Assembly (NCBI GenBank): GCA_964498245.1
Contig: CAZCGK010000001.1
Location: 36,581 to 100,580, forward strand
Direction of reading: 5' to 3'
DNA length: 64,000 nt
From: an uncultured archaeon
GTDB taxonomy: Archaea > Aenigmatarchaeota > Aenigmatarchaeia > QMZP01
The translations under genes were made by a program, and so were the position numbers. The notes under the pieces were generated by a model. The model ran no database searches. It was not told the origin of the DNA and saw only the letters and a program-made list of their open reading frames with translations. Below, piece by piece: positions 1 to 47,550 of this stretch. Positions within the stretch are counted from its first letter, which is position 1, and each line of letters opens with the position of its first letter.

Positions 1-3000
1 AGGCTGTAGAAACACCTGTTACAAATTCTGCAACATCCCGTCCTGTCCAAGGCTGACCTTTATATTCCTCATCAAAGAAGGGAAGAGCCTCTATCTTTGG
101 GAATCCCAGCATACCCCATACTCCGATGAATACTGAGGTTATGGTAGCTATCATGGAAAGCCAAACAAACTTTTTCACCATGTCCAGACATCTTTCATAC
201 CAGTCCATTAAAGAATTCGCTATATCCAGTGTTTCGTAAAGGGTTTTTCTTATTTCCTTTACGGATGATGTTACTATGTCATACATGCTTTCATATTCTT
301 GAATGGTTGTTATTGGCGGAAGTTGTGCTATTAGTTCTCTCGTGAGGGTTTTTCCCGTTTTTCCATCACGGTATGAAATGAAGAAGGACACGGAATTGTT
401 AATGTAAATGAAACGGTTGTTGGGTGGGTGGACAGAGCATTTTGATTCCTTTGGAACAAACATTGTACAGTTAAAGGTTATGCCTATGTTCTCATCACCT
501 TTCTTTTCACAGAATATATCTGCCAGATTATTTCCGATCTTTCCGTAAACCTCTTCCACACGGAAATTGTAAGGTGTGTTTTCTATATGTGCCTTCACAT
601 TGAGTCTGTTCCTTGTTTCACAGGTCTTAAAGGTAACCGGTGAGGCTGGAGAATCTATAACAAGCTTTATATCATTTTCCTTAATGCATGTTCCATACGG
701 GTCAAGTGTTGGGTCATAATTACAGAATTCCCCGGCAGGACAACCACAATCTATACAGCAGTTTTCGCTGTTTTCACCAAACTCGGTTTCACATCCATAT
801 TCACCGCAATGGAAGATGGGTGTGAGGGTTATGGCTGGAAGTTTTGCAGAAAGTTCCATGGTCCTGGTTCTGCTTCCATCTGGGAAGCTTATAGTGAAGT
901 TCAGGTGGTTATCATCGAATATTATGCCTGAGGATTCGCAATCCGGTTGCTCTGGTACGAGTACTGTACAGTTGAATAATCCGCTACCTGGGTGCTTCTC
1001 CTTGCAGGTTATTGCCGTTCCCGTTTCCCCACCAAGCTGATATGAGTAAAAATCAAGATGCAATCCTGTGGGTGGATTATGTATTTTTGCAAGTATGCTG
1101 ATTTCATGTTCTTTAAGACAATCCTCAAGTTCAACAGGGTTTACGGATTCTATAGAAAGTTTTATTCCGTCGATTGGTCTGCATTCCCCTATACTGTCAC
1201 AGTATTCATCATCAGAATAGCACCCTGCATCCTGACAGCATGTTTCCGGTGTTTCTCCAGAATCTATTTTACCATCTCCGCATAGTTTGGATGGAATGGT
1301 TATTGGATAAAATCCCTCTGAAACAGAAAGTGTCTTTGTTTTCTTCACTGCTCCATCACTGTAAGTTATCTGGAATATGAGTGTGTTTGGTTCAAATTTA
1401 TAATTGAGGTCCGGGCTGTAATTTGTTATGGAGAAGGGGATTGAACAGTTGTATTCGAAATTTTCTGTGGGCTCTGAACATATGGGTGTTCCTGGAGAGA
1501 CCTCACCATTTGTAAGATTCAGCTGGGCGCTGGCGCTTATAAGTACGGTATCAGTTGGTGGATTAAATATCTTTGCAGTAACGTTTATCATGTCTCCGGG
1601 TTGATAATCCTTTAGATAGGATGTTAGATAAATTATACCGAGAGAAATGGCATCTTCGGATTCGCATTCGTGCGTTCCTATATCGCAGTACAATCCTTCC
1701 CCACAGACACAATCATAATTCCATACAATAGAGGAGGAAGGTTGTGAGAGTTCTTTTGTTTCCTGATTCGGACCGTTAAAATAGGTTATTGTTAGTGTTA
1801 TATCCCTTATTTCAGAAGTTTTGCTACCCTTACCGCAACTTACCGGGGGTGAAAGCATGACAGGACATTCATAGGTAGAGGGAGAGCTCTTTGAACATGT
1901 AGAGAGGTATTGGGTATCATCTATTGAAAATGTTGCCTCTGCTGTATCTGATAGTGTGGCGGGAGCATTATTGATTTTCATTGGTATTCTGATCTCGGTC
2001 TGTGAAAGGCAGTTGTCAATCTGAACGGTTACAGGAGGCACTTCTAAGTTCATATCTGCAAGAGCCCTGCATGTGCCTGTGCTTGGTGTGTCTGGACTGG
2101 CATCACAGTATAATCCTTCTTCACAACCACAGTCATAACAGCAGTTTGCGGATGTTTCTCCCTTTGAAAGCTCACATTCACCGTTTCCACATGTGTAAAA
2201 TGGATTAAGGTTAAGTACCACAGGTGATATTATTTTGTCTGAATATTCTGGGAAGAGAAAGTAATAATCTTTGTTTATTGTGTCTATGGTATTTGATTCT
2301 GTAATTGCTGAGGTTGGTTGTGGTGGTGAGGATTCGAGTTCGCTTTGGGAACCACCGATGGCGTATATTTTATCGGCGTTTAAGAGCACAACTTTTTCCA
2401 GCCAGTTAAAGGGTATCATTCCAAAGTTTTCTATATACATTATTATTGGCTGAATATATTCTTCTGCTTTGGAATAAAGATTTACAGAATCAATTTCATC
2501 TTCGGATGTTATGAATATATTATAATCCCTTCTTTCTATTCTTTCCAGGATCCCGGTCCAACTTGAGGTTTCATATGGTCCTTCTAGTTTTACCAATATC
2601 ATGAGATTTGCTACTTCTGGGTACCTTTCTGCGCCTTCTCTCTGAGAGATATCATCCCACGAGTATTCAACATCTGCAAAGGTGTCGTATTCTTCAGGTT
2701 CTAACTGAGAGCACGTAACAGGGTCCAGAACCTTACATTTGTAGATATATATTTTCTTTATGGTATGGGAGAGGCTTGCACTGTTTATTGTAACCCTTAT
2801 TTTTATCTTTGACCAGGAAATGTCACTTGGGTCTCTTACAACCATGACTGCTGTATTGATCATATCCTTAAAGCTGTATTCTATGCTTGCCTGAATTTCA
2901 TCATTGTATATCACTCTAAAAGTGGTTGCTGAAACTATACTCAAATTTAAGAGCATGCAGGAAACCATTACTGCAGTGATCTGTAGGCAAAGCATCCTTG

Positions 3001-3007
3001 CATTCAT
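1..3007 (-). CDS. Giant secreted cysteine-rich repeat protein, partial (C-terminus beyond the window start). Last gene of the prepilin-like operon; putative pilus-associated adhesin.
   Basis: Uninterrupted minus-strand reading frame across the whole interval, read by hand. It is missing from the ORF track because it runs off the window. The N-terminus is MNARMLCLQITAVMVSCMLL, a signal peptide. The body has repeated modules such as CGNGECELSKGETSANCCYDCGCEEGLYCD and CGDGKIDSGETPETCCQDAGCYSDDEYCD. A TM-like stretch lies near position 1. The start ATG (3007-3005) overlaps the upstream TGA stop (3006-3004) as ATGA. Confidence 0.6.
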   Translation of the reverse strand, partial: MNARMLCLQITAVMVSCMLLNLSIVSATTFRVIYNDEIQASIEYSFKDMINTAVMVVRDPSDISWSKIKIRVTINSASLSHTIKKIYIYKCKVLDPVTCSQLEPEEYDTFADVEYSWDDISQREGAERYPEVANLMILVKLEGPYETSSWTGILERIERRDYNIFITSEDEIDSVNLYSKAEEYIQPIIMYIENFGMIPFNWLEKVVLLNADKIYAIGGSQSELESSPPQPTSAITESNTIDTINKDYYFLFPEYSDKIISPVVLNLNPFYTCGNGECELSKGETSANCCYDCGCEEGLYCDASPDTPSTGTCRALADMNLEVPPVTVQIDNCLSQTEIRIPMKINNAPATLSDTAEATFSIDDTQYLSTCSKSSPSTYECPVMLSPPVSCGKGSKTSEIRDITLTITYFNGPNQETKELSQPSSSIVWNYDCVCGEGLYCDIGTHECESEDAISLGIIYLTSYLKDYQPGDMINVTAKIFNPPTDTVLISASAQLNLTNGEVSPGTPICSEPTENFEYNCSIPFSITNYSPDLNYKFEPNTLIFQITYSDGAVKKTKTLSVSEGFYPITIPSKLCGDGKIDSGETPETCCQDAGCYSDDEYCDSIGECRPIDGIKLSIESVNPVELEDCLKEHEISILAKIHNPPTGLHLDFYSYQLGGETGTAITCKEKHPGSGLFNCTVLVPEQPDCESSGIIFDDNHLNFTISFPDGSRTRTMELSAKLPAITLTPIFHCGEYGCETEFGENSENCCIDCGCPAGEFCNYDPTLDPYGTCIKENDIKLVIDSPASPVTFKTCETRNRLNVKAHIENTPYNFRVEEVYGKIGNNLADIFCEKKGDENIGITFNCTMFVPKESKCSVHPPNNRFIYINNSVSFFISYRDGKTGKTLTRELIAQLPPITTIQEYESMYDIVTSSVKEIRKTLYETLDIANSLMDWYERCLDMVKKFVWLSMIATITSVFIGVWGMLGFPKIEALPFFDEEYKGQPWTGRDVAEFVTGVSTA

Positions 3008-4863
3008 TCACTAATCACCTCATCATAAGTTCTTGTACATCCTTCATAGTTGAGATAATCAATGGGTTTTTCAGATACAGGCCCGAGGTTACAGAGCATG
3101 AATAGATTGTTCAATTTCATCATTTCTCCAACCCTTTCTTCCGATTTTTCTATTTCCTTGAAATATTCACCATAGGGCAGATATATGTACAGATCTCCTC
3201 CATCCATATCTTCTGTTATTGTTAAAGGTGTTATGAGTCCACCAGATGCTTTCAGATTATCTACAAGAGTTATATAGACAATGTAATTGCCTACCGGTAT
3301 TCGCGTTATTCGAGCTATGTTTTTATTGAATATTCTGTGATAGATTTTACCTTCATTTACATTGAGGAAATCCATATAAACTATTTCGTTGGTATGTTTA
3401 TCATTCAAAGTATAAACTTCATAAGCAGGTATGGTATAGGTTTGTGAAATAGTGTTGTTGGTGACAAGAGCCTCGAAAAAGTGGAGGTTTATCACAGGTG
3501 TTCTTTTCAAAACTACCTTCATTCCAGCAAGTCTGTTCGATCCCGTGAGGTTGAAATAACGTGCAAAGCCCCTTTTGTAGATTTCGAGAGATCCTATTCC
3601 ACAAGGTGCTTGAGCAAAAACTTTTCCAGAAGAATCTGTTTCACCAAGGCTGCAACCCATAAAGCTCACCAAAGCTTCTCTTACTGGTCTGTTCTCAGTA
3701 TCGACTACGGTTATATCAGCTATGCAGTGGCTCGCTGAGCATAACTCTGAGTGTAATGATTGTTGTAGTGTGATTTGTCCTGTAGAAAGGTCGGGTGGTG
3801 TGTTATTGATTATATAGACTTGTGTTGCAAAATTCAAACTCTTTCTCGATTCTGGATCCTGTACGGTAACTATAGCAGGATAGCTCAGAGAGTATCTTAC
3901 GTATATTGGTTTGGATTGACACTTTCCGATAAATGGTATGGGTTCTGCGTATGCAACGATGGGCTCTGGTGTGAATGAAAATGTAAAGGAATCGAGTTCG
4001 AAATCATCCGGAAGGAAGAACTTTACATCAAGGTCTGAATATGTTTTTCCATTGTATCTCAGTAAAGAAAATTTGGGCGATGCGCTTATGTTCATCGTAT
4101 GAAGCGGGACTTTTTCAGGCATATAGATATTTTCTAAAGTTCTTCTTATAGCATCTTCAACCTTGGGTTTTATATCACTCCATGTTCTTATATAGAAATC
4201 ACCGCATTCTGTAAGAAAGACAAAAAACGGTATCTCGTTTACACCATCATCAATTGGGGAAACCACCATCGTTGTAAGAGTTGAGTATTCAAGAAAGTGT
4301 CTTTTAAGAGAGTCTTTCAGAAAACTCTCGGAAAACTCTATCATCTCTTTAAGCTTCATTGGAACAGAAACTGTGTAAGGTTGAGGAACCGGATAATCTT
4401 TTGCAACTGTTGGCATGTTCACAACTGCTTCAACCCTGTCATCGAGAATATTTACAGCGATAACCTGGGGGTCTCCTAGTGAAGTGAGTATGCCCTCAGC
4501 AGAAGCCGTACTGAAGAATTTATCTTTATGTTCTCTCAAATATTCTTGCAAGGCGTTCTTTATGTTTTCTCTTATATCCGGTATAACAACCCTTCCCTCA
4601 TATTGCCAGTAAGGAACATCCTTTCCGTTAAGCCTTACAGAGCCTAAAGGAAAAGCCTCAGGATTTGCATATCCACCGTGCGCGGTTATATTATTTAACA
4701 CATCGGATAAGGACGCCTTCAAAAAACCTTCAACTGTTGATTTTGCAACTCTTACATCAGGGGACTCTACCGGGAAAAAGGTATTCCACTGGGTGGCTAT
4801 TACAATCATTATCACGATAAAAAGAGCTATTATTATCACAACTTCTGTTTGAGCTTTTTTCAT
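3004..4863 (-). CDS. Large prepilin-like protein (619 aa) with a class III / type IV pilin-type signal peptide
   Basis: N-terminus MKKAQTEVVIIIALFIVIMIVIATQ: a short basic leader, then KA|Q, then a roughly 20-residue hydrophobic helix, as in archaeal type IV pilin N-terminal domains. The stop overlaps the next gene's start. Confidence 0.55.
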   Translation of the reverse strand: MKKAQTEVVIIIALFIVIMIVIATQWNTFFPVESPDVRVAKSTVEGFLKASLSDVLNNITAHGGYANPEAFPLGSVRLNGKDVPYWQYEGRVVIPDIRENIKNALQEYLREHKDKFFSTASAEGILTSLGDPQVIAVNILDDRVEAVVNMPTVAKDYPVPQPYTVSVPMKLKEMIEFSESFLKDSLKRHFLEYSTLTTMVVSPIDDGVNEIPFFVFLTECGDFYIRTWSDIKPKVEDAIRRTLENIYMPEKVPLHTMNISASPKFSLLRYNGKTYSDLDVKFFLPDDFELDSFTFSFTPEPIVAYAEPIPFIGKCQSKPIYVRYSLSYPAIVTVQDPESRKSLNFATQVYIINNTPPDLSTGQITLQQSLHSELCSASHCIADITVVDTENRPVREALVSFMGCSLGETDSSGKVFAQAPCGIGSLEIYKRGFARYFNLTGSNRLAGMKVVLKRTPVINLHFFEALVTNNTISQTYTIPAYEVYTLNDKHTNEIVYMDFLNVNEGKIYHRIFNKNIARITRIPVGNYIVYITLVDNLKASGGLITPLTITEDMDGGDLYIYLPYGEYFKEIEKSEERVGEMMKLNNLFMLCNLGPVSEKPIDYLNYEGCTRTYDEVISE

Positions 4864-4898: not shown

Positions 4899-5417
4899 TT
4901 ATTTCTGAGTTGCAAAGGATACGATGAGCTTTGCTTCTAAAAGATATTCTGTTCCATGATATAATTTTTCAATTATTGTGTTGGCAACCCTTTTGGGGAT
5001 TCTCCTCTCCCTTTCAAGAGAAGGATCTCCAAACTCCAGTTTTAATGCTCCCTTTCCATGAAGAGGTATCCATTCTGAGGATGCAGACCTTACGGTAAAG
5101 AAATATCTCATGTTCTCGTTTATCAATCCCATATATTTTTTCAGGGTTTCGTTTGCAAGTTCCAAGCATGGTTTTGGAGAACCCCTGCACACATAGCTTG
5201 GTGTTAGGAATGCACAGGTTATGAGGTCTGAAACGGTCTCGCACCTGTCTCCGTATCCTGTGTTTGTTTTGAGCACGGAGAGAAGCAGGTTATTTACATA
5301 CAAATCGCTGTATTCTTCTCTTATTACGGTAGAGGAAAGCGAGAGAAGAATTGTTATCAGGCCTAGGAATATCAAAAGCACAACAATCAGCAATATCATG
5401 CTTGTTTGTGCCCTCAT
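4899..5417 (-). CDS. Prepilin-like protein (172 aa)
   Basis: N-terminus MRAQTSMILLIVVLLIFLGLITILLSL (RA|Q followed by a hydrophobic segment). Sits in the same operon. Confidence 0.5.
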   Translation of the reverse strand: MRAQTSMILLIVVLLIFLGLITILLSLSSTVIREEYSDLYVNNLLLSVLKTNTGYGDRCETVSDLITCAFLTPSYVCRGSPKPCLELANETLKKYMGLINENMRYFFTVRSASSEWIPLHGKGALKLEFGDPSLERERRIPKRVANTIIEKLYHGTEYLLEAKLIVSFATQK

Positions 5418-5926
5418 TCATATACACCTACTGTAAGGAGTGCAAGATCGTATTTTTGGGTTATATGTCTGTAAACGTTGACAGGAAAAGTGTAAATATA
5501 TCTTGTAATTCTTTCTTTTTCCAGAGATTTCGATTTACAAAAGCTCCAGTAATTGCAATCAGGGTATACAAACTCTGTGCATTCGTTTTCTTCCTCTCCA
5601 TCAGCAATTTTCACTTCAAAATACCAGTTGCTTCCAAAAATTTTGTTAAGCTCTCTGCATATATCCTTTCCGGAGCTTTCAAGTCTTTTCATGCCCGTGA
5701 GTAATGAATCATCAAATGCAAACCTTTCTTTCACGAAGAATGGAGAAACCATAAGATGCTTTGCAAGGAACAGTGCTCTATCGTCCATTGATCTTGTGCG
5801 TTCAGTGCCTATATGCATAACATTCCACCATCCTAAAAAAAGGACAAGCAGAGCTATTACAAATATCACAAAAAAGGTCATGAATATGTATTCCATTATT
5901 CCTGCTTGTGATTTCATTTCATTCAC
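5414..5926 (-). CDS. Prepilin-like / N-terminally anchored small protein (170 aa)
   Basis: N-terminus MNEMKSQAGIMEYIFMTFFVIFVIALLVLFLGWW. It overlaps both neighbours by 4-8 nt. Confidence 0.45.
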   Translation of the reverse strand: MNEMKSQAGIMEYIFMTFFVIFVIALLVLFLGWWNVMHIGTERTRSMDDRALFLAKHLMVSPFFVKERFAFDDSLLTGMKRLESSGKDICRELNKIFGSNWYFEVKIADGEEENECTEFVYPDCNYWSFCKSKSLEKERITRYIYTFPVNVYRHITQKYDLALLTVGVYE

Positions 5927-7067
5927 ACCCGTTCTTTATAAGGTCTGCATATATGGATTTTGATTCCTCTAGGGCAAGTTTTAACATTTCCATCTCCCCA
6001 TATTTTGTATAGTCATTTCCCGTATGCTTCATAACATTTCCAAGTTTTGAGTACAGCTGATTATAAAGAGGATAACATCTGCAGTAGATGCTCTCGGGAT
6101 TGTGCTGAGGATCGCATCTTTTTTGATATTCTGATCTGAGAATGTATGATTTTTCTCTTACAAATTCAGCAGCGATGGCAAGATTTTTGAGCAGAAGTGT
6201 GTTTTTGAAATGGTAAAGTTTTTCGCCTGAAGATTTTCCTAATATGTCTTCTTCATTTCCTCCTATAATGAGTGCTAGAATGTCTACAGGGTCTTTGTAT
6301 ACAAAAATATCCTGAGATCTTGGTGTATATATATAGCCCATTTCAGGAGAGACGGGTTTTACGCATATTCCCTGTGAAATCCTCGCCTGTCTACAGGATT
6401 GAGATACAGTTACTAGGATATAGTTTTTTTCCAGTGCGGTATTACATGGTGAAGCTTTTGCTCTGTAGAAATCCAAGACTTTGAGAAATGCTTCCCTTTC
6501 GCAGGGTTTTCCGCCACATATGTTTTCCAGAAGGGTATTACCGTCGCAGAATCCAAAGGTGATTTTCACATGGAAATTTTGAGTATCGGGAAATATTCTT
6601 GTCAGGTTTTTCATAATATTCCATGTTTTATCTTCTATATCCTCTGGAATAAAAATCACATGCATCTCTGGAAGTGCTGTTATGAAACGGAATCTCCACC
6701 AACCATAATCGATTTCCTCAGCATCAATTATTGATTCTTTTCTGTCCTCAAAATGAGGAAATATGGGAAGAGATACTGGAGAAATCTCTCCGAAATCGCA
6801 TTTAATAGCAGGAGGCTCGGGTTCATTCCAAGCAATTTCGCAGGAGGAGAAATCAAACATTTTTGTGTCATTGAAAACAACAGGATTACCTGAAAAATAA
6901 ACGCTTTCTGAGGTTTTCTTGAGGTTGTTTAGCACGGTTAAGCTTTGTTTGGTTTTTCCAAATGAAGAATAATCTGAAGCGTATTGAATGAGAAAGAATA
7001 AAATAAAACCTGAAAATATAATACCCAATACCAGCTGAAAAGCCTTATATACTGTTATCATTTTCAA
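5919..7067 (-). CDS. Prepilin-like protein (382 aa)
   Basis: N-terminus MKMITVYKAFQLVLGIIFSGFILFFLIQ (KA|FQ followed by a hydrophobic helix). It has a 4-nt overlap with the upstream gene. Confidence 0.5.
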   Translation of the reverse strand: MKMITVYKAFQLVLGIIFSGFILFFLIQYASDYSSFGKTKQSLTVLNNLKKTSESVYFSGNPVVFNDTKMFDFSSCEIAWNEPEPPAIKCDFGEISPVSLPIFPHFEDRKESIIDAEEIDYGWWRFRFITALPEMHVIFIPEDIEDKTWNIMKNLTRIFPDTQNFHVKITFGFCDGNTLLENICGGKPCEREAFLKVLDFYRAKASPCNTALEKNYILVTVSQSCRQARISQGICVKPVSPEMGYIYTPRSQDIFVYKDPVDILALIIGGNEEDILGKSSGEKLYHFKNTLLLKNLAIAAEFVREKSYILRSEYQKRCDPQHNPESIYCRCYPLYNQLYSKLGNVMKHTGNDYTKYGEMEMLKLALEESKSIYADLIKNGCE

Positions 7068-7588
7068 TCACTTATCTTTTCCACCGAAACCCATTTTCCG
7101 ATATTTTCAAAATACAGTTCCGAACCAGGACCTGCACAGAAATTTTCTTCAGGTAGTATTCTGAGATAGTTTACATGATACCCGCTTTCACCTCCGCAAA
7201 ACGTTATCCACAAGGTGTAATCATTTTCCTTTATCAGGTTTTCATATACAGGGTCGGGTATCCAGTCTCCTGCAAGATTAGGTCTGGGATCTGAGCTGTT
7301 TACAAAACATATTTTTGTATTTTCTGGTATGTTCAGTGTATACACTTCACTAAAGCCCTTTGATTTTGGATAGACTTGATTCTCAACAAGATTTTTTATC
7401 TCTTTTACAGTTTTCTGAATCTGGGCATTTTCACCGGTGCAGAATATATTCATGATGACATTAAAACCGAAAAATATAACAAAGGATATAACTACTATCG
7501 CAAAAATAAGTGCAAATACCATACCTACACTCATGGCTTTCATTTTCTCACTAAATTCTTTTTGATTTTGAAGAATTAAATTATTCAA
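7064..7588 (-). CDS. Prepilin-like protein (174 aa by the ORF track; the real start is probably an internal Met near 7540)
   Basis: The internal sequence MKAMSVGMVFALIFAIVVISFVIFFGF looks like the true class III signal peptide. Confidence 0.45.
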   Translation of the reverse strand: MNNLILQNQKEFSEKMKAMSVGMVFALIFAIVVISFVIFFGFNVIMNIFCTGENAQIQKTVKEIKNLVENQVYPKSKGFSEVYTLNIPENTKICFVNSSDPRPNLAGDWIPDPVYENLIKENDYTLWITFCGGESGYHVNYLRILPEENFCAGPGSELYFENIGKWVSVEKISD

Positions 7589-8186
7589 CTATTTCTATTG
7601 CAAACGAAGCAGAACCATAGAGGCTGGAGGAAGGTGTGGAATATCCTATGGAAGGAGAGGTTGCATGACAATCATTTGCATCTCTATAATTTGTGCATAC
7701 AGCTGCTCTAAAGGAATATATTCCAGGAGGTGATGTAGGGCTTGGTTTGATTATTATATCCACTTTATCTCTTCCATTCGGTTCTATATCAATACTGGGA
7801 GGGGAAAGTGTTATCCATGATTTTACTTCGTCTTTTAATCTCGAAAGTTGAGAAGGATCGAGTCCTCCGCCTATTGCTTCGAGATAAACATTAACGTAAT
7901 ATGTATTGGATTTGTCTGTATCTTCATTTCTTATGCCTAAAGTATATGCACCTGTTTCTCCTTTTTTCCATTTTGTTACAGAAGGTGCAGCAATTCCAAC
8001 CCTTTTGTTCTGTGATGCAAGTTCTTGAAGGAGTTTCTGCATAGCGATATCGGTTGTTTTGTGGGTTATGGTGGAAAGGGGATCGAAAATACCTTGAAGC
8101 CATGTGAGGGATAAGCTCAACAAGATCACTGCAAACACAACAGCAACTATAAAACCCAAACTTAACTGAAACGCTCCCTTTTTCAT
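7581..8186 (-). CDS. Prepilin (type IV pilin-like, 201 aa)
   Basis: N-terminus MKKGAFQLSLGFIVAVVFAVILLSLSL: the canonical KKG|A prepilin peptidase motif followed by a hydrophobic helix. Confidence 0.6.
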   Translation of the reverse strand: MKKGAFQLSLGFIVAVVFAVILLSLSLTWLQGIFDPLSTITHKTTDIAMQKLLQELASQNKRVGIAAPSVTKWKKGETGAYTLGIRNEDTDKSNTYYVNVYLEAIGGGLDPSQLSRLKDEVKSWITLSPPSIDIEPNGRDKVDIIIKPSPTSPPGIYSFRAAVCTNYRDANDCHATSPSIGYSTPSSSLYGSASFAIEIVE

Positions 8187-8232
8187 GAATAATAATTTGA
8201 TAGCAGATACTTATATATTTTAATCAAAATGG

Positions 8233-8700
8233 CTACATTATTCCAACATTTCTGTAAACACGATAATATTCTCTTGTTACCGTTTGATATCCACCGCTTC
8301 CAGATTTTATTTCCAAAGAAACAGTAACGGGCGCATCTTCCGGTGGAGTGTTGTTCCAGTTATCGCAATTTACAGAAAAATCTATATCTGTAACATATTC
8401 AAAGGATCCGTAGGTGTCTGCAAGAAAGGTTTTCAATTCTTTAAGTCTTGTTTTGAACTCTTCACAGTTTTCTGCAGAAGTGAGGGTCTGATTTGTTACA
8501 TCTTTTAGGTTGTTAAGGAGATAAAGATCATTATTGCTTAAAGTTTCTGAAGCGTCCATTGTGGAGTACGCTAAAAGCAAAATCTGCACTGCTGAAATCA
8601 TCCCCGCCAAAAAAATCATCGTCACTATAAACATCTGTGCTTTCCTCATAATCTGTTTTTGTTCCTCAAGAAATAAAAAACCTCTTCGTATTTTAATCAA
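8233..8700 (-). CDS. Prepilin-like protein; the likely start is at internal Met (~8649), giving MRKAQMFIVTMIFLAGMISAVQILLL
   Basis: KA|Q motif and hydrophobic helix. It is the first gene of the minus-strand operon and is divergent from pus10. Confidence 0.5.
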   Translation of the reverse strand: MIKIRRGFLFLEEQKQIMRKAQMFIVTMIFLAGMISAVQILLLAYSTMDASETLSNNDLYLLNNLKDVTNQTLTSAENCEEFKTRLKELKTFLADTYGSFEYVTDIDFSVNCDNWNNTPPEDAPVTVSLEIKSGSGGYQTVTREYYRVYRNVGIM

Positions 8701-8702
8701 GT

Positions 8703-9896
8703 ATGAGTTTCGAAAGGTATGTTAACGAGGAGGTTATTCAGATAGCAAGAGAGATAATTGCACATAGAGAAAGCATATGCGATCACTGTCTGGGAAGACA
8801 ATTCGCCCAGATAGGACACGGTTTTACAAATGCAAAAAGGGGAAGGATTATAAGAAAAATTACAGGCCTGAAGAAAAAACCCGGTTCATGCCCGGTTTGC
8901 AGGGATTTTTTCAAGAACCTTGAAAGGCTTTCAGAGAAAATTGCAGACGCGCTGAAGGGTTTCGAATTCAAAACGTTTGTTGTGGGAACGAAACTTGATG
9001 AGGATTTGATAAAAAGGGAGGAAGCATTATGGGAGGATGTGGGTATAAAATACTGTGAATCCATAAAATCGGAAATAAACAGGGAACTCGGTAAGCTTAT
9101 AGAGAAAAAAACTGGAAAAAAGGCTCACAGGGAAAATCCCGAAATCACCATAACCTTGAACACGGAAGGTATGGATTTCAAGATTGAGCCTGCGTCGCTC
9201 TATATCTATGGTAGGTACAAAAAGCTTGTAAGAGGTATCCCGCAGACCAAATGGGATAAATATCCAGAAACTGTTGAAGATATCATAGCAGAACCCTTTA
9301 TGAAAGAGACTGAAGGAAAAGCACATTCTTTTCATGGAATGGGAAGGGAGGATATAGATGCTAGATGTCTTGATTGGAGACCGTTTGTGCTGGAAATAAA
9401 GAAACCGAAAAAGAGAAATATAAATTTGAGAAAAATGGAAAGAGAGGTTAACAAGTCAAAGAAAGTTAGAATCAGTGATTTGAGGTTCTCTAATAAAGAA
9501 GAAGTTGTTAAGCTTAAGGATGCAAGACCTGATAAAACCTATCGTGTTATTGTAGAGTTTGAAAAATCTTTAAATAAGGAAGATTTAGAAAAATTAAAAT
9601 CTCTTGTGGGTGAAATATACCAGAGAACGCCTACAAGGGTTTTGCACAGGAGAGCAGATGTCCTCAGAAAGAGAAAGGTGAAGGAGATAAGCTTCAGAAT
9701 GATAAACAATAAAAAACTTGAACTCGAAATAAAAGGTGAAGCAGGACTTTACATAAAAGAGCTTGTAACAGGGGATAATGGCAGAACAAGGCCATCGCTT
9801 GCAGAAATTATAGGAAAAAACCCGAAGGTATCGGAGCTGGATGTTATAAAGATACATTGGAAAGAAGGGGAGCGAAAAAATGGTAAGGATGAGTAA
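8703..9896 (+). CDS. pus10: tRNA pseudouridine(54/55) synthase Pus10
   Basis: N-terminal zinc ribbon (CDHC...CPVC), THUMP-like middle region, and a catalytic region with GREDIDARCLDWRPFVLEI. The 397 aa length is typical of archaeal Pus10. Confidence 0.7.
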   Translation: MSFERYVNEEVIQIAREIIAHRESICDHCLGRQFAQIGHGFTNAKRGRIIRKITGLKKKPGSCPVCRDFFKNLERLSEKIADALKGFEFKTFVVGTKLDEDLIKREEALWEDVGIKYCESIKSEINRELGKLIEKKTGKKAHRENPEITITLNTEGMDFKIEPASLYIYGRYKKLVRGIPQTKWDKYPETVEDIIAEPFMKETEGKAHSFHGMGREDIDARCLDWRPFVLEIKKPKKRNINLRKMEREVNKSKKVRISDLRFSNKEEVVKLKDARPDKTYRVIVEFEKSLNKEDLEKLKSLVGEIYQRTPTRVLHRRADVLRKRKVKEISFRMINNKKLELEIKGEAGLYIKELVTGDNGRTRPSLAEIIGKNPKVSELDVIKIHWKEGERKNGKDE

Positions 9897-10548: not shown

Positions 10549-11157
10549 TTGAGCTGTATGAAAGGTGTTTATATGATAGGAAAAAACATCAGAAAGGATG
10601 AATGGGCAATAGTTCTTGATTTCCTATCCCATGGACATGCGGGTATGGAAAGAGCGCAGCCCGTTGCGCAGATTTTGGGAGAGAGATATTTTTCGCTTCT
10701 TGAGGTTATAGTGAGGGATGGTGTTTATCTCAAGGCAGGAGACAGGGTTTATATAGGGGATGGAAAGAGAAATGAAGTGAAATATATACGGGGGAGGCTC
10801 AAAATAGATGATCTTACGGCATTTGCCAAAGAGGAACTTCCAGAAGTTATAGAAAATCTTGTTAAGAAAAATCCTGAAAGATTCATAGAATTTTTCAACA
10901 AGGCTGGAAGCATAACTACAAGGCTCCATCAGCTTGAGCTCCTTCCAGGTATAGGAAAAAAGCATCTATGGGCAATACTCGAGGAGAGAAAGGTAAAACC
11001 CTTTGAATCATTTGAAGATTTAAAGAAAAGGGTCCCTCTCATACCAGACCCTGAAAAAATGATAGTTAAAAGAATAATAGATGAATTGAGTGATAAAGAT
11101 AAATACAAGCTGTTCGTTCCGAGGTTTGATAAGGAAAAAAGGGATAGGTTCAGGTAA
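10549..11157 (+). CDS. DUF655-family nucleic-acid-binding protein (HhH), the conserved partner of rpoF
   Basis: Motifs EWAIVLDFLSHGH and LELLPGIGKKHLWAILEERK (helix-hairpin-helix). It follows rpoF, which is the canonical archaeal neighbourhood. Confidence 0.65.
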   Translation: MSCMKGVYMIGKNIRKDEWAIVLDFLSHGHAGMERAQPVAQILGERYFSLLEVIVRDGVYLKAGDRVYIGDGKRNEVKYIRGRLKIDDLTAFAKEELPEVIENLVKKNPERFIEFFNKAGSITTRLHQLELLPGIGKKHLWAILEERKVKPFESFEDLKKRVPLIPDPEKMIVKRIIDELSDKDKYKLFVPRFDKEKRDRFR

Positions 11158-11248
11158 TGGTATTAGATAAAACAGGAAAGAAATTGTTGTTAGAAATTCG
11201 AACCGGATTTGAAGCACAAATATTCGATGGATTTTAGTTAAAAGCAAA

Positions 11249-11493
11249 TGGGCCCGCTGGGATTCTCGTTGCCAAATCCTCTCTTCATGTGAATATTATT
11301 TGGATGTTTTCTGTTAACGCTTTTGCGTAAGCAAGCGTTAATTTACATATTAACCTTTCTTTGTGGAAGCGGTAGCTCCCGTAAAGAAAGGTTATTTCGA
11401 ACCCAGGACCTCCCGCTAGCCTAGCACTCACCGGACCAGAACGTCCGGTGGTCATATAAGACGGGCGCTCTAGGCCAGCTGAGCTACGGGCCC
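11249..11493 (-). tRNA. tRNA gene interrupted by two introns. Predicted mature tRNA is 75 nt with anticodon UAU (probable tRNA-Ile reading AUA). Exons are at 11455-11493, 11396-11417 and 11249-11262; introns are at 11418-11454 (37 nt, anticodon loop 37/38) and about 11263-11395 (about 133 nt, T-loop 59/60).
   Basis: Hand-assembled cloverleaf on the minus strand. Acceptor GGGCCCG/CGGGCCC + A73. D arm GCTC-AGCTGGCCTA-GAGC. Anticodon stem CCCGT/GCGGG, loop CTTATA+A. Variable region AGGTC. T arm CTGGG-TTCGAAT-CCCAG. Intron 1 has a bulge-helix-bulge-like geometry (4-bp helix CTTA/TAGG flanked by 3-nt bulges) and an internal 8-bp hairpin CACCGGAC/GTCCGGTG. Intron 2 contains a 9-bp hairpin TTAACGCTT/AAGCGTTAA. 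No encoded CCA; a T-tract follows A73. An upstream TTTTTAAAA lies roughly -30. Confidence 0.75.
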
Positions 11494-11670
11494 CTGTCTA
11501 AAATTTATTGGAAATGCAGTTTTAAAAAAGCATTTGATTTACTGGAGTATAGAAAAATTTAAAAATACAAATGATAGTATATTCTTTACCCTTGACTGGT
11601 TTTGTACAGAGTATTGAAGCATTAGGGGTGTTATGATTATACATTATATAAAAATTAAGAGGTGATAGAT

Positions 11671-13314
11671 ATGACCAATTCCGTTCAGCTTGCAGGACAG
11701 CCTATTTTAATATTACCTGAGGGTACTGTTAGAAGTAAAGGCAGAGATGCCCAGAGAACAAATATTGCAGCAGCAAAGGCTATAGCAGATACTGTTAAAA
11801 CAACTCTGGGCCCGAAGGGAATGGATAAGATGCTTGTGGATTCTCTAGGAGATGTGGTGATAACCAATGATGGGGCAACGATACTCAATGAGATGCAGAT
11901 AGAACATCCCTCAGCAAAAATGATGGTGGAAATAGCAAAGACACAGGACAGTGCGGTGGGAGACGGAACAACCACAGCGGTTGTTCTGGCAGGTGAGCTT
12001 CTGAAAAAGGCAGAAGATCTTTTGGAACAGGAAATACATCCAACGGTGATAACCAAGGGTTTCAGAATGGCAAAACTCAAGGCTCTGGAGGTTCTGAATA
12101 AGATTGCAATGGATGTAAGTATAAAGGATGAGAGCATGCTCGAAAAGATTGCGGAAACAGCTATGACAGGTAAATCCTCTGAAAAGGCTTCTAAAGAGCT
12201 TGCAGCACTTGCGGTAAAGGCTATAAAGAGGGTCGCGGAGATAAAGGATAATGAAATAGAGATTGACACAGATAACATAAAGCTCGAAAAGAAGGAAGGT
12301 GGTTCAATCAATGATACAAGACTTATCGATGGTATAATAATAGACAAGGAAGTTGTTCATCCAGCAATGCCCAAGAGGGTAGAGAATGCAAAGATAGCGC
12401 TGATAGATTCTGCTATGGAGATTAAGGAACTTGAAGGGGATGCAAAGATAAGCATAGACTCTCCGGAGAAAATGCAGGCATTTCTCGAGGACCAGGAGAG
12501 AACGCTAAAGAATATGGTTGATAAGCTTGTAGAGGTAGGAGCTAATGTTGTGCTCTGTCAGAAGGGAATAGATGACACAGCACAGCACTATCTTGCCAAG
12601 GCGGGAATTCTTGCTGCAAGAAGGGTAAAGAAATCTGATATGGAGAAGCTCGCAAAGGCAACAGGAGCAACAATAGTTACAAACATCAAGGAACTTGAAA
12701 AGAAGGATCTTGGATATGCAGGGATTGTGTATGAAAAGAAAGTTGCAGGAGATGAAATGATATTCATAGAAAAGTGCAAGGAGCCCAAGGCAGTGACAAT
12801 TCTTATCAGAGGTGGAACGGAGCATGTTGTTGATGAGGTTGAAAGAGCAATGCAGGATGCTGTTAAGGGAATAGCAGCGGCTCTGGAGCTCGGTAAGGTT
12901 GTCGCTGGTGGTGGTGCAAGTGAAATAGAAATATCCAGAGAGGTCAAGAAATATGCGGAGAGTTTCTCCGGAAGAGAACAGCTTGCAGTGAGTGCGTTTG
13001 CAGAAGCTATGGAGGCAATACCCAGAACACTTGCAGAGAATGCAGGCCTGGACCCCATCGATAAACTGGCGGCACTCAGAGCAAGACATGATAAGAACGA
13101 GGTCAACATCGGTCTGAACGTGTTTTCCGGAGAGATAGAGGACATGACAAAAATAGGTGTGATAGAGCCTCTCAAAACAAAGCTTCAGGCAATAAAGTCT
13201 GCATCAGAGGCAGCAGAAATGATACTGAGAATAGATGATGTGATATCAGCAAGCTCTTCAGAAAAGGGAGGTAGTTCAGGACACGGCGGACCCAGTGAAA
13301 TGCCCGAGTATTAA
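11671..13314 (+). CDS. ths: Thermosome subunit (group II chaperonin)
   Basis: [18 protein letters not shown] and GDGTTT motifs, GGGA... and a C-terminal GGSSGHGG tail. The start was moved to ATG 11671 (MTNSVQ...), which follows AAGAGGTGAT. The ORF track extends upstream to a GTG. Confidence 0.9.
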
Positions 13315-21440: not shown

Positions 21441-21725
21441 TTATTTAATAAAACTCTTTTCTTTCACTATTTCTTCTGGCTTCGCTTCCAGCATGGCCTT
21501 TATTTCTTCAAGCTCTATCTCTATTTCCTTTGAAAGCCTTGCTCTATCCCATCGGGTCAGGGTTCTTTCCTCAAGAATTCTGAGCTTTTCTTCTGTTCTG
21601 TCCAGTTTTTCGAGAAGAATGTGCCTGACGGGTTTTTCCTTTTTGAGGGTTTTTTCTCTGAGCCTGTCCCATTTTTTTCTTAATTTTCTTAATTTTCTCT
21701 GCCATCCAAAAAACAGGGAAAACAT
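21441..21725 (-). CDS. Small basic coiled-coil hypothetical protein (94 aa)
   Basis: ORF sits between RuBisCO and the ATP-grasp gene on the same strand. It is Lys/Arg/Glu-rich. Confidence 0.35.
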   Translation of the reverse strand: MFSLFFGWQRKLRKLRKKWDRLREKTLKKEKPVRHILLEKLDRTEEKLRILEERTLTRWDRARLSKEIEIELEEIKAMLEAKPEEIVKEKSFIK

Positions 21726-22951
21726 TATTTCACTCTTCTGCTCCAGTGAATGAGAGCTGTGTGAAGTTCTGGATGCGTTCTGGCGTGTGTTTTGAGTGGT
21801 ATACCTTTCATCACGGCATCCAGGGCCTGTCTTATTGCCCTGGCTCCTGCTTCAGGCCCTTGTGGATGACCCCACAGGCCTCCACCGCAGGTAAAGATTA
21901 TATCCTTTCCTAAAAGCTTTACAAGAGAAGGTATCAGTCCTGGATGCAGACCTCCTGAAGCTACTGGAAAAACCCTCTTCAAACCATGCCATTTTGCTCT
22001 CAGGAATGAATCTATCTCCTGAACCTCTCTTTTACTTCCTTCCATTTTTCCAACTGCTGTTCCTGTATGCAAGGCTGTCACACCAGCAAGTCTTGCGAAT
22101 TTGGCTATAACCTTCATGGAAATTCCGTGTTCAGGGTCTCTTGTAAATGCAGCGTGCATTGCCCTGTGAGCATGAATGGCCAAGCCTAATTTTTGATTTC
22201 TCATGAACTGAAGAGCGGACCAGCCAGAGGTTATGATATCTATCATTATACATTTCCCTCCCTGCGCCTTTATCATCTCTGCTCTTTCAAGCATGACATC
22301 TGCAGGGGCTGTTATATTGCATGCATATATCACTGTCCTGCCTTCCTCGGATTTTATCCTGTCAACAACATCGAGCATTCTCACAACTCTTTCTTCGAAT
22401 TTGCTAAAAGGCATTGAGGTCAGGTTTTCATCGTCTTTTGTATAATCTATGCCTGCTGAATATACTCTGTAGGCAAGCTCTGCCTGTTCTTTGGGTGTTA
22501 GACCCAGTTTAGGCTTGAATATGGTTCCTGCTATGGGTCTGTTTCTGATTTTCATGATTCTTCGCAGATCTTCCATGCCTATTTCAGGTCCGGGAAAGCT
22601 TTTTGCAAGCTTTTTCGGAATGTGAACATCTTCGAGCCTTAAGCTCTCGACAAGCTTCATACCGAAAATGTTTCCTGCTACAGAGCTCAGAATCTGTGAA
22701 ATATTGCCTGGTTCGAAAAGTTCTGCAGGATATGCTATTTTTATTCTTCTTCCCTTTATCTCAAAAACCCTTGCGGATATTCTTTCTATTCTCTTCTTCC
22801 AGGTTTTAAGTTCTGTCCAGGTTCCTGTTGAGCTTTCTAATGCAATGTTTTCAGCGACTTTTTTTATGGAAATGCCTTTGGCTGGTTTCACATAGAAATC
22901 GCAGATCAGATCGTTTTTGCTTGGTTTGTAACTTAGATCGAGATAGTGCAT
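21725..22951 (-). CDS. rbcL: Ribulose-1,5-bisphosphate carboxylase large subunit, form III (archaeal)
   Basis: ESSTGTWT, GTIFKPKLGL (catalytic Lys), IDYTKDDENL (carbamylated Lys) and GGLHPG motifs, 408 aa. Confidence 0.85.
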   Translation of the reverse strand: MHYLDLSYKPSKNDLICDFYVKPAKGISIKKVAENIALESSTGTWTELKTWKKRIERISARVFEIKGRRIKIAYPAELFEPGNISQILSSVAGNIFGMKLVESLRLEDVHIPKKLAKSFPGPEIGMEDLRRIMKIRNRPIAGTIFKPKLGLTPKEQAELAYRVYSAGIDYTKDDENLTSMPFSKFEERVVRMLDVVDRIKSEEGRTVIYACNITAPADVMLERAEMIKAQGGKCIMIDIITSGWSALQFMRNQKLGLAIHAHRAMHAAFTRDPEHGISMKVIAKFARLAGVTALHTGTAVGKMEGSKREVQEIDSFLRAKWHGLKRVFPVASGGLHPGLIPSLVKLLGKDIIFTCGGGLWGHPQGPEAGARAIRQALDAVMKGIPLKTHARTHPELHTALIHWSRRVK

Positions 22952-24386: not shown

Positions 24387-25055
24387 TCACTTTAGTGGAT
24401 TAAAAGTGTCCGATTGATATTTTTGTTCCACCCGATGCCTCTTTGTTTGATAAAGTGCTTTGTCCGCTGTTTTCAGAACCTCCGGGGTATACTCTTCAAA
24501 CACACCGACCCCCATGCTCAGGCTTATATTTTCAATATCTCTTAACACTTCTTCTGAATGTGGATATTTTTTCATTCTCCACAGTCTTTTGAGAGTCTTC
24601 TTCAGATTATCTTTTTCTCTTTCAACATATTCTGTTATCCTCTCCATTACATAGGGTATATTTTCTGGTTTTATGTCTTTGAGAAGCACGATCATTTCAT
24701 CACCACCATATCTTCCTGTGAAAGCCTCTGTGAAAAGCTTATCCTGACCTCGAGAGATTCTTGTGCTTCCTTTTAATGCTCTGGCTATTCTTTTCAGTAC
24801 ATGATCGCCTGCTTTATGACCGTAGGTATCATTGATTTTCTTGAAGTTGTCCACATCTATGAATAAAAGCGCATAATTACCCCTTTCCAAGCTCTTCAGT
24901 TCATTTTCAAGGGCTCTCCTGTTATTCAGGCCTGTAAGCGGGTCCTTGTATGCTAATTCTTCCAGCTCTTTCGCATATCTGGCAAGCTCTTTCGCATATT
25001 CACGAAGGTCCTCTGGCCCTAATACATCTATCTCGCTTTCTTTCAGTATCCTCAT
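24387..25055 (-). CDS. GGDEF-domain protein (putative diguanylate cyclase with a degenerate GGDEM signature) and an N-terminal coiled coil
   Basis: DPLTGLNNRRALE, FIDVDNFKKINDTYGHKAGD, RYGGDEM and LSMGVGV...ADKALYQTK match the GGDEF fold landmarks. Confidence 0.7.
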   Translation of the reverse strand: MRILKESEIDVLGPEDLREYAKELARYAKELEELAYKDPLTGLNNRRALENELKSLERGNYALLFIDVDNFKKINDTYGHKAGDHVLKRIARALKGSTRISRGQDKLFTEAFTGRYGGDEMIVLLKDIKPENIPYVMERITEYVEREKDNLKKTLKRLWRMKKYPHSEEVLRDIENISLSMGVGVFEEYTPEVLKTADKALYQTKRHRVEQKYQSDTFNPLK

Positions 25056-25153: not shown

Positions 25154-26182
25154 ATGATAGATATTGACGGTTCATATCTTGAAGGCGGGGGTCAAATACT
25201 CAGAACATCTGTCGCTCTTTCCTGTGTAACCGGAAAACCGGTGAGGGTTTTCAGCATCAGAGCGAACAGGCCGCAACCGGGATTAAAAGCACAGCATCTT
25301 CAGAGTATAAAAGCTGCTGCTAAGCTGTGCAATGCAAAGGTTTCCGGTCTTTTTCTGGGATCGGAGAAAATAGAATTTGTTCCAGGAGAAATACAAGGAG
25401 GCTCTCTTTCTATAAATGTGGGCACTGCTGGTTCAATAGGCTTGGTTCTTCAAACCCTCATGATACCTGCGATACATGCGAAAAAGCCTGTGGAACTGCA
25501 TATAACAGGGGGAACGGATGTTTCATGGTCACCGTCCGTGGGCTTTATCCAGCACGTAAAGCTTCCTCTGCTTGAAAAAATGGGTTATTCTGGAAGACTT
25601 GCTCTAGAAAAAAGAGGTTACTATCCGAAAGGTGGAGGGAGGATAGCAATGGTTATAGAACCTGGAAGGCTTAGAGAAATAAACCTTACGGAGCAGGGAA
25701 AGCCCGAATGCGTTCATGGCATTTCCCATGCTTCGCAAAACCTCAAAAAGGCTTCAGTGGCGGAAAGGCAGGCAAAGGCAGCGAGGGATATAGTTTTTAA
25801 AAGATTTGAGCTTTCTCCTGATATAGAAAAGCAATACTGCGATACGCTCTGCGCTGGTTCTGGTATGGATTTATGGATTAAAACCAGCAATACAGTTATG
25901 GGTTCAACCTCTCTCGGAAAACCCGGAAAGAGAGCCGAGCTTGTGGGAAGGGAGGCCGCAGAGTTTCTTGTAAAGCAGTTTGATTCCGGTGCGTGTGTTG
26001 ATGAGCACATGGGAGATCAGATCATACCTTACATGGCTCTGGCAGGAAAATCTTGCATAACGGTTCCGGAAATAACAGGTCACATCAAAACAAACATCTG
26101 GGTTACTGAAAGGTTTTTACCGGTAAAGTTCGAAATCGAAAAAATCAGAGCATGTTATGCCATAAGATGCAGATCACTTTAG
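25154..26182 (+). CDS. rtcA: RNA 3'-terminal phosphate cyclase
   Basis: N-terminal LEGGGQILRTSVALS and the internal region HITGGTDVSWSPSVGF. Confidence 0.85.
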   Translation: MIDIDGSYLEGGGQILRTSVALSCVTGKPVRVFSIRANRPQPGLKAQHLQSIKAAAKLCNAKVSGLFLGSEKIEFVPGEIQGGSLSINVGTAGSIGLVLQTLMIPAIHAKKPVELHITGGTDVSWSPSVGFIQHVKLPLLEKMGYSGRLALEKRGYYPKGGGRIAMVIEPGRLREINLTEQGKPECVHGISHASQNLKKASVAERQAKAARDIVFKRFELSPDIEKQYCDTLCAGSGMDLWIKTSNTVMGSTSLGKPGKRAELVGREAAEFLVKQFDSGACVDEHMGDQIIPYMALAGKSCITVPEITGHIKTNIWVTERFLPVKFEIEKIRACYAIRCRSL

Positions 26183-31613: not shown

Positions 31614-32027
31614 ATGAAAAAAGTTCTTGTTGGGGGAGTGTTCAATCTGATTCACCCTGGTCACATTTTCTTCTTGGGAAGAGCAAGGGAGTATGGAGAT
31701 CACCTTACTGTTGTTGTTGCAAATGATAAGACGGTTCTTGAAAAAAAGGGTTTTCTCGTTTTCTCTTCAGAAGAGAGGCTGGAGCTTGTCCAGAACTTAA
31801 AGCATGTTGACAATGCGATAGTGGGTGATGAAAGAGATATGTTCAGGGTTGTGGAAGAGGAAAAACCTGATGTCATAGTTTTGGGATATGATCAGGAGTT
31901 TGATACCGAGGCTCTTGAGAGATTTCTAAAGGAGAAGAATATTCAGTGCAAGATAGTTAGAATAAACCAGAAGTTCGGGGATTACAGCACGAGAGAAATT
32001 ATAGAAAGAATAAAAAGGATGGATTAA
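31614..32027 (+). CDS. ribL: Archaeal FAD synthetase (FMN adenylyltransferase, cytidylyltransferase family)
   Basis: GGVFNLIHPGHIFFL nucleotidyltransferase motif, 137 aa. Confidence 0.8.
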   Translation: MKKVLVGGVFNLIHPGHIFFLGRAREYGDHLTVVVANDKTVLEKKGFLVFSSEERLELVQNLKHVDNAIVGDERDMFRVVEEEKPDVIVLGYDQEFDTEALERFLKEKNIQCKIVRINQKFGDYSTREIIERIKRMD

Positions 32028-42596: not shown

Positions 42597-42833
42597 AAAA
42601 TCAGATTGCCCGTCATAATCATCACCCTTCAAGGTTCTTTTTAAATTCTTTCATCATCTATTGAAGGTGATAGAAGATTATATAAAAAATTTATCATGAT
42701 CGTTCAATATTCATAATCTCGCTTACTCAGCAACCATTTCCAAAGAGGTACGAAAGTAATCTTGTTTGGATTAGTTTCTTTTATTCTGGAAAATTAACCT
42801 ATATATATTAATTGAGGATAAAAATAATATTAT

Positions 42834-43286: not shown

Positions 43287-43329
43287 ATAATATAAACCTG
43301 AGATTATTAAAAAATAAAGGAGGAAGAAA

Positions 43330-43785: not shown

Positions 43786-43804
43786 GTAAACAGCTTTTGA
43801 AAGT

Positions 43805-44419: not shown

Positions 44420-44450
44420 AAATTTATCACCAAACACACAAATCTAATTT

Positions 44451-46663: not shown

Positions 46664-46667
46664 GTGC

Positions 46668-47546: not shown

Positions 47547-47550
47547 ATCA

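Follow-up and report, generated by a model that had tools for sequence, protein, structure and literature searches.

Does the minus strand of an archaeal contig between positions 11493 and 11249 encode a working tRNA-Ile(UAU), given that the candidate gene lies in three separate pieces and that one of the intervening sequences sits in the T-loop and is 133 nt long? The locus belongs to a 64,000-nt stretch of contig CAZCGK010000001.1 from an uncultured archaeon (referred to here as the window, whose coordinates are used throughout). Our analysis argues, with a probability of roughly 0.9, that it is a working tRNA-Ile(UAU) gene with two introns removed by an endonuclease, which would supply the AUA decoder of a Candidatus Aenigmatarchaeota archaeon. 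No contiguous transfer RNA (tRNA) is present, and joining three minus-strand segments yields a 75-nt tRNA-Ile(UAU) with all canonical invariants. The parts of the gene and its presumed signals are as follows:

11493-11455, minus strand: exon 1, 39 nt, GGGCCCGTAGCTCAGCTGGCCTAGAGCGCCCGTCTTATA, containing the acceptor 5' strand, the D arm and the anticodon stem 5' strand
within 11455-11493, minus strand: loop part of exon 1, nt 32-37 (CUUAUA), with the anticodon UAU
11454-11418, minus strand: intron 1, 37 nt, at the canonical 37/38 position, with an internal 8-bp hairpin
11417-11396, minus strand: exon 2, 22 nt, AGCGGGAGGTCCTGGGTTCGAA, containing nt 38, the anticodon stem 3' strand and the variable loop AGGUC
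within 11396-11417, minus strand: T-arm part of exon 2, the T stem 5' strand and T-loop nt 54-59 (UUCGAA)
11395-11263, minus strand: intron 2, 133 nt, in the T-loop at 59/60
11262-11249, minus strand: exon 3, 14 nt, TCCCAGCGGGCCCA, containing U60, the T stem 3' strand, the acceptor 3' strand and the discriminator A73
11520-11529, minus strand: TATA-like box TTTTTTAAAA, 27-36 nt upstream of the mature 5' end
11236-11248, minus strand: T-rich trailer TTTGCTTTTAACT, read from the sequence

The TATA-like box, which is also kept in a close relative (L086, described below), is a putative archaeal promoter of the tRNA gene, and the trailer is likely an oligo-T transcription stop, judging from the behavior of archaeal RNA polymerase at oligo-T tracts. 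CCA is not encoded at the end of exon 3. A split or permuted tRNA gene was ruled out, the three exons being collinear on one strand within 245 nt.

Standard searches pass over this gene. ARAGORN, run by default or with the -i intron option, reported zero tRNAs in the whole 64-kb window, and Rfam at its gathering score found nothing for the tRNA gene, in agreement with the initial annotation, which had described the locus as lacking a contiguous cloverleaf. With permissive thresholds, the Rfam tRNA model gave a 17.4-bit partial match (threshold 29) that covered exons 1-2 only. We treat the silence of the finders as a tool limitation and do not count it as evidence against the gene. When the three segments were joined in silico at the coordinates of the initial annotation, which proved exact, ARAGORN called the 75-mer tRNA-Ile(tat), and removal of intron 2 alone led to the call of tRNA-Ile(tat) with a 37-nt anticodon-loop intron (-i). 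The acceptor, D, anticodon and T stems had been read correctly, and the claimed UAU anticodon is borne out by the spliced 7-nt anticodon loop CUUAUAA, in which U33 and A37 are present. The mature tRNA has U8, A14, G18G19, G15:C48, U33, A37, G53:C61, U54..A58, C56, and A73. The exons are 67% GC, compared with ~39% for the window, and exon 1 forms the intergenic island of highest GC in the window; this segment is identical in L086 and nearly so in three other relatives (L002, L005, and L006). Scans for GC islands and T-loop/D-loop motifs and of intergenic regions revealed no further hidden tRNAs in the window.

We then asked how well the two introns fit the splicing signal. The archaeal splicing endonuclease acts on a motif of a 3-nt bulge, a 4-bp helix and a 3-nt bulge (3-4-3), cutting after the second bulge nucleotide (PMC5829648). 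In a register test, every boundary yielding the same spliced product was scored against this motif. For intron 1, the central helix CUUA (nt 32-35, 11460-11457)/UAGG (11423-11420) forms with 4/4 pairs, the bulges are UA|U and CU|A, the 5-bp anticodon stem is the outer helix, and the inner helix is 1 bp. The 37-nt length, the 37/38 site and the helix with 3-nt bulges given by the initial annotation were thus reproduced, and by sequence the motif is near-canonical. For intron 2, the central helix UUCG (nt 54-57, 11401-11398)/CGAG (11268-11265) also has 4/4 pairs, with bulges AA|A and AA|U, the 5-bp T stem as outer helix and again a 1-bp inner helix. The initial annotation had correctly given this intron 133 nt and had allowed either 59/60 or 58/59 as its site. 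The former stands and the latter is rejected, because 59/60 alone gives a 4/4 central helix together with the T stem as outer helix; the three alternative equivalent boundaries, 58/59 among them, reach 1-3/4 central-helix pairs and lose the outer helix. Shuffled introns attain a 4/4 central helix in register ~2% of the time, per intron. Folding across the junctions bears both motifs out, the motif-constrained folds lying within 0.2 kcal/mol (intron 1) and 0.3 kcal/mol (intron 2) of the minimum free energy. In both introns, the internal hairpins come after the 1-bp inner helix, and because they follow it directly in intron 2, this intron is of the relaxed hBH or bulge-helix-loop (BHL) type, which needs a broad-specificity endonuclease (PMC5829648).

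The length of intron 2 is explained by comparison with L086 (JGI Ga0180302_10000518), which, on the side of the thermosome gene, shares 95.5% identity with the window across 2.5 kb. The exons of the two genes are identical (75/75) and intron 1 differs by one substitution, but the 59/60 intron of L086 is only 20 nt long, ATAACCTTTCTTT-G-CGAGAA. Intron 2 of the window keeps the first 13 and last 6 nt of this short intron, and 114 nt replace the single G, leaving the central helix and both bulges intact and enlarging the loop of the bulge-helix-loop motif alone. The sequences therefore identify the 133-nt intron as a ~20-nt 59/60 intron expanded by a hairpin-rich insertion:

11269-11382, minus strand: 114-nt insert, delimited by comparison with L086
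11394-11351, 11341-11314 and 11303-11272, minus strand: three hairpins completed or carried by the insert, located by folding

Intron 2 folds with -38.7 kcal/mol (z = -6.1 versus shuffles). In the first hairpin, the original 5' part of the intron, TAACCTTTCTTT, pairs with an inverted copy, AAAGAAAGGTTA, inside the insert. The 9-bp hairpin (TTAACGCTT/AAGCGTTAA) pointed out by the initial annotation is real, but a larger hairpin of 12 bp plus 6 bp at the 5' end had been overlooked. Logan SRR7051320 and JGI Ga0180301 contain the 133-nt allele with 100% identity, and the allele in ERZ1742239 differs from the window by one D-loop base; recurrence in three other independent assemblies shows that the long allele is not an assembly artifact. 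An origin of the insert from the ancestral 3' flank, with exon 3 relocated, had been suggested by a MAFFT alignment and was dropped, 991 of 2000 shuffles scoring as well in local alignment. Our guess is that the insert arose by fold-back duplication.

To place the gene among its orthologs, genome loci were taken from the best thermosome matches and the exon pattern served to locate those from metagenomes; L083, L084, and L086 have the same neighbors as the window gene. After in-silico splicing, ARAGORN called tRNA-Ile(tat) for L002, L003, L005, L006, L007, L010, L011, L015, L017, L083, L084, and L086, and L025 and L046, spliced by hand, are also tRNA-Ile(UAU). The thirteen orthologs carry 1-4 introns at varying sites, and most adjoin the thermosome gene:

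L086: introns at 37/38 and 59/60 (20 nt)
L005 and L085: anticodon-loop intron (37/38 or 38/39) and 59/60 (24 nt)
L006: anticodon-loop intron (37/38 or 38/39) and 59/60 (48 nt)
L007: D-loop, 37/38 and 59/60 (47 nt)
L083 (Ga0164318_10008048), ~7600-7950, minus strand: 37/38 and 59/60 (180 nt)
L003 (CAYNRQ010000020.1), ~2475-2778, plus strand: apparently four introns, in the D-loop (49 nt) and at 29/30 (38 nt), 37/38 (23 nt) and 59/60 (119 nt)
L002: D-loop, 37/38 and 53/54, the last replacing 59/60
L082 and L084: 37/38 and 53/54, the latter replacing 59/60
L010: three introns, one of them a 60-nt T-loop intron whose boundary lies outside the register test
L011: D-loop and 37/38
L015: 37/38 and an 18-nt variable-loop intron
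L017: canonical intron only
L025 and L046 (Candidatus Nanoanaerosalina metagenome-assembled genomes, MAGs): one long anticodon-loop intron

Most of the tested ortholog introns have 3-4/4 central-helix pairs, including all four of L003 (L010, L011, L015, and L017 were outside the test), and the anticodon-loop introns of L005 and L006 reach this value solely at the equivalent 38/39 boundary. The 53/54 intron of L002, L082, and L084 is 31 nt long with the central helix CCUG/CAGG and is of the HBh' type, and the intron of L025 and L046 has the central helix CUUA/UGAG with 4/4 pairs, checked by hand. Read from these sequences, the introns of this gene turn over within the phylum both in where they sit and in how long they are. 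Two of the long 59/60 introns have repeat features of their own: the 119-nt intron of L003 starts with TCCCGAGCCC, resembling a decayed copy of the 3' exon, and in the 180-nt intron of L083 a 31-nt direct repeat, CAAGCTTTTCCTCAAGGCAAAAGCTTGAGCA, is present twice, 71 nt apart. The divergent pairing of tRNA-Ile(UAU) and thermosome genes reaches beyond Aenigmatarchaeota, to the two DPANN MAGs L025 and L046.

The structure of the spliced product is conserved, with covariation, in the orthologs. The anticodon-loop string CTTATA is invariant in all orthologs parsed. In an alignment of 10 distinct mature sequences, 99.5% of the cloverleaf cells are paired, and both sides have changed in 9/21 pairs, including 3/5 T-stem and 4/7 acceptor pairs that bridge introns; the anticodon stem also shows compensatory changes. 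The observed covariation was reached by 0/500 shuffles on four of five measures and by 4/500 on the fifth, and sliding the registers lowers the pairing to 23-53%. The motif register and the ortholog covariation together exceed chance.

The codon usage of the window points to a need for this tRNA. In 33 Pfam-supported window genes, ATA occurs at 58.8 per 1000 codons, ranks 2/61 and makes up 63% of the Ile codons; an efficient AUA decoder would be indispensable, because ATA is the second most used codon. In the pathway that we propose, a single ~245-nt precursor would be transcribed from the TATA-like promoter, divergently from the thermosome gene. EndA would cut the two bulge-helix-bulge motifs (four cuts), the canonical one at 37/38 and the relaxed hBH/BHL-type one at 59/60 on the T stem, and an RtcB-type ligase would join the three exons in two ligations. 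The ends would be finished by RNase P, RNase Z and the CCA-adding enzyme, and U34 is presumably modified, avoiding AUG reading. The loop expansion of intron 2 may be tolerated because the enzyme does not read the loop. From transcription through cleavage and ligation in vivo to the endonuclease type, the U34 modification and the absence of a TiaS/tRNA-Ile(CAU) route, this scheme is what we infer for the living cell.

Several points weigh against the gene being functional as proposed. The case comes from sequence analysis, transcription and splicing being predictions made at the DNA level. The inner helix of intron 2 is 1 bp, so that cleavage requires a broad-specificity endonuclease, and none was found in the window. 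The splice sites of the orthologs were picked to restore the cloverleaf, which brings some circularity into the covariation; the compensated pairs, however, are located apart from the junctions. A role for the hairpins has no covariation evidence either way, because the long-intron allele is known as one sequence type.

A first alternative would add to the two-intron tRNA gene and not replace it, namely that the insert is more than filler: a functional RNA released, and probably circularized, by splicing, or a small mobile element whose targets are the loops of introns. An analogue exists in the euryarchaeal tRNA-Trp intron, which holds a C/D-box guide RNA. The strong fold with its three hairpins, the inverted copy of the adjacent intron sequence and the fast turnover of intron content at 59/60 among the relatives are consistent with such an idea, and for Caldiarchaeum it has been proposed that tRNA introns derive from mobile elements (PMC3293823). 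However, an intron-encoded C/D-box guide RNA was rejected, neither strand of intron 2 having an exact C box (RUGAUGA) or a CUGA, and no small nucleolar RNA or other Rfam family was matched at E<=10. No second copy of the insert was found in the 64-kb window or in 90 related loci, and two probes had no exact match in viral contigs. The long introns of L003 and L083 are not similar to the insert, and terminal repeats or a target duplication were not seen; conservation, moreover, cannot be judged from one sequence type. We regard a function or mobility of the insert as unlikely. A broader version is comparably improbable in our estimation: that the tRNA-Ile(UAU) gene of Aenigmatarchaeota is a hot spot of intron gain, sliding and expansion, and that the insert is in addition a recently acquired functional or mobile RNA module in an endonuclease-blind loop, released as a stable, probably circular, RNA. 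Its hot-spot part draws on the 1-4 introns per gene, the T-arm introns at 59/60 or 53/54, and the lengths of 20-180 nt among the relatives.

A second alternative holds that the 114-nt insertion disabled splicing and left a pseudogene, AUA being read by a second tRNA-Ile(UAU), or by tRNA-Ile2(CAU) with TiaS, encoded elsewhere. The 1-bp inner helix at 59/60, an intron far longer than usual and the failure of every tRNA finder to recognize the gene would fit this view, and our reading is confined to the 64-kb window. By contrast, the exons have remained identical to those of L086 at all 75 positions while the flanks are 95.5% identical, and the motif has lost neither its central helix nor either of its bulges. 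The inner helix is just as weak in the short allele, being of a type cleaved in vitro by the ARMAN-2 EndA (PMC3239211), and the 119-nt and 180-nt introns of relatives at the same site have intact motifs. Four assemblies, each from a different sample, have kept the allele unchanged (one base off in ERZ1742239), in an organism whose second most frequent codon is AUA. A pseudogene therefore appears very unlikely. The weakest alternative, a degenerate self-splicing group I intron or else an assembly chimera or chance resemblance, can be set aside as having a negligible probability: group I introns are known from archaea, a survey naming Aenigmarchaeota as one of the lineages (PMC6125680), and standard tools miss the gene, but 133 nt is too short, Rfam gave no intron match at E<=10 in 11150-11600, the sequence recurs in four independent assemblies, and the exact bulge-helix-bulge register with the ortholog covariation rules out chance. 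The catalytic core of a group I intron takes ~200 nt or more.

With a functional two-intron tRNA-Ile(UAU) gene as the favored reading, we compared it with known systems. Multiple or non-canonical bulge-helix-bulge introns are documented in Thermoproteales, Thaumarchaeota, ARMAN, and Asgard archaea (PMC4033280, PMC8450103, PMC11291895), and DPANN archaea show increased tRNA gene disruption, with undetected disrupted genes probable (PMC5829648). The multi-intron tRNA genes of Thermoproteales, Thaumarchaeota, ARMAN/DPANN, and Asgard have in common with the window gene protein-spliced 3-4-3 introns at 37/38 plus another site (PMC4033280, PMC5829648, PMC8450103, PMC11291895), and likewise have a relaxed motif at the non-canonical site and are missed by standard finders. 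They differ in that the window intron exceeds 100 nt and is demonstrably an expanded 20-nt intron, and Aenigmatarchaeota were not among the phyla that we found surveyed. A 2014 review gives archaeal tRNA introns as shorter than 100 nt, with a maximum of three per gene (PMC4033280). Against this limit, the remark of the initial annotation that intron 2 is far longer than those described is justified, but within its own family it is surpassed by L083, with 180 nt at the same site.

The closest precedent for the T-loop intron is the ARMAN-2 pre-tRNA-Cys(GCA). Its 13-nt 59/60 intron has a relaxed hBH/BHL motif, which the organism's own endonuclease, an epsilon2 enzyme, cleaves in vitro (PMC3239211). 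Both hosts are DPANN archaea, the site is the same, the T stem is the outer helix, nt 54-57 likewise form the central helix with the 3' end of the intron, and the 5' cut lies in a loop. The window intron, however, is ten times longer, has three internal hairpins and interrupts another isotype, and the host endonuclease is here a prediction. The UAU anticodon for AUA is shared with the 'Ile3' tRNAs of Nanoarchaeum equitans, Korarchaeum cryptofilum, and ARMAN (PMC3239211, PMC8450103, PMC6000648), whose hosts, except Korarchaeum, are DPANN; the ARMAN-2 tRNA-Ile(UAU) also has a canonical 37/38 intron, of 25 nt. Three ARMAN lineages use tRNA-Ile(UAU) without TiaS and tRNA-Ile(CAU) (PMC3239211), and Nanoarchaeum and Korarchaeum likewise use it in the absence of both (PMC8450103, PMC6000648). 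The label of a lineage marker given by the initial annotation fits this distribution, the host being DPANN and tRNA-Ile(UAU) with TiaS loss having been reported in ARMAN (PMC3239211) and Nanoarchaeum (PMC8450103). Compared with the 'Ile3' tRNAs, the window gene has an extra T-loop intron, and the loss of TiaS and tRNA-Ile2(CAU), established for those lineages, is presumed here. A similar snapshot of intron evolution comes from Caldiarchaeum subterraneum, where the introns of tRNA-Thr(GGU) vary among close relatives from similar samples (PMC3293823), but the change there was tied to a scattered tRNA fragment and a 1.8-kb element bearing a recombinase, and the 114-nt insertion is accompanied by no element, repeat or tRNA fragment. 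We found no paper linking TiaS or tRNA introns specifically to Aenigmatarchaeota. Since multi-intron tRNAs and 59/60 introns are known in DPANN archaea, the oddity is one of degree. The T-loop intron is unusually long yet mechanistically unremarkable; every element has a precedent, and what is new is the phylum and the intron length (133 nt, with 180 nt in L083); the four introns of L003 go beyond the maximum of three given in the review.

The assignment of the host was made from the neighboring genes and their best matches, which identify it by sequence as Candidatus Aenigmatarchaeota (DPANN). Among one-genome-per-species contigs, the best thermosome matches are Candidatus Aenigmatarchaeota MAGs, with 81-69% identity. 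Ribosomal protein L21e and RpoF are also among the archaeal housekeeping neighbors, and the neighbors with their coordinates, plus one RNA-processing gene farther away, are the following:

8703-9896: Pus10, archaeal neighbor gene
10549-11157: DUF655, archaeal neighbor gene
11662-13314: thermosome, transcribed divergently from the tRNA gene
25154-26182, plus strand: RtcA (RNA 3'-terminal phosphate cyclase)

RtcA belongs to an RNA repair and ligation pathway that includes the RtcB tRNA ligase. EndA, RtcB, and TiaS were not found among the ~55 open reading frames (ORFs) of the window, which has little bearing on the whole genome, and the absence of a tRNA-Ile2(CAU) from the 64-kb window is uninformative on the genome; the window presumably amounts to ~5-10% of a DPANN genome, taking an estimated genome size. 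In L086, a 341-aa radical-SAM/Wyosine_form (Taw1/TYW1-like) gene lies between the tRNA and DUF655 genes (2559-3584, minus strand); the window is without it and has ~90 nt at 11158-11248 with weak remnant similarity (p ~0.015).

Elsewhere in the window, a candidate C/D-box small RNA was located at 42599-42661 (minus strand), in the intergenic region after the TFB gene, with a sub-threshold match to Rfam sR2 (28.5 bits versus 42) and recognizable C (GAUGAUGA), C' (GGUGAUGA), and D (CUGA) boxes; another match resembling sR2, at 31821-31872 (plus strand), falls within a coding ORF and is likely to be spurious. The 222-aa ORF at 24387-25055 (minus strand) matches GGDEF (diguanylate cyclase; E = 3e-32) and may be horizontally acquired, because GGDEF proteins are, to our knowledge, rare in Archaea. 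A homolog of the RuBisCO large subunit, presumably form III, is encoded at 21725-22951 (minus strand), and 44909-48468 (plus strand) holds the genes for a type IV pilus-like ATPase (T2SSE) and two membrane-platform proteins (T2SSF x2); several blocks of ORFs (4899-8700, 42834-44897) are without a Pfam match. The 143.7-kb ENA contig ERZ27248349:k141_164527 has identical genes and overlaps positions 1-~31,920 of the window only (offset +111,793), indicating that another, longer assembly of the same organism is the source of the window.

This gene does not alter what is established about how archaeal tRNAs are spliced. ARAGORN and the tRNA model of Rfam both miss the only decoder that we found for AUA, the codon ranking second in frequency; annotations of Aenigmatarchaeota will consequently report a 'missing' tRNA-Ile, and inferences about completeness or codon reassignment built on that absence would be wrong. 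The 20-nt and 133-nt alleles, in flanks that are ~95% identical, constitute a natural test of the loop tolerance of the endonuclease at a relaxed 59/60 motif, and the relatives extend the intron-length series to 180 nt at a locus showing fast intron turnover. Collectively, these observations extend tRNA-Ile(UAU), and probably TiaS-free AUA reading, to another DPANN phylum.

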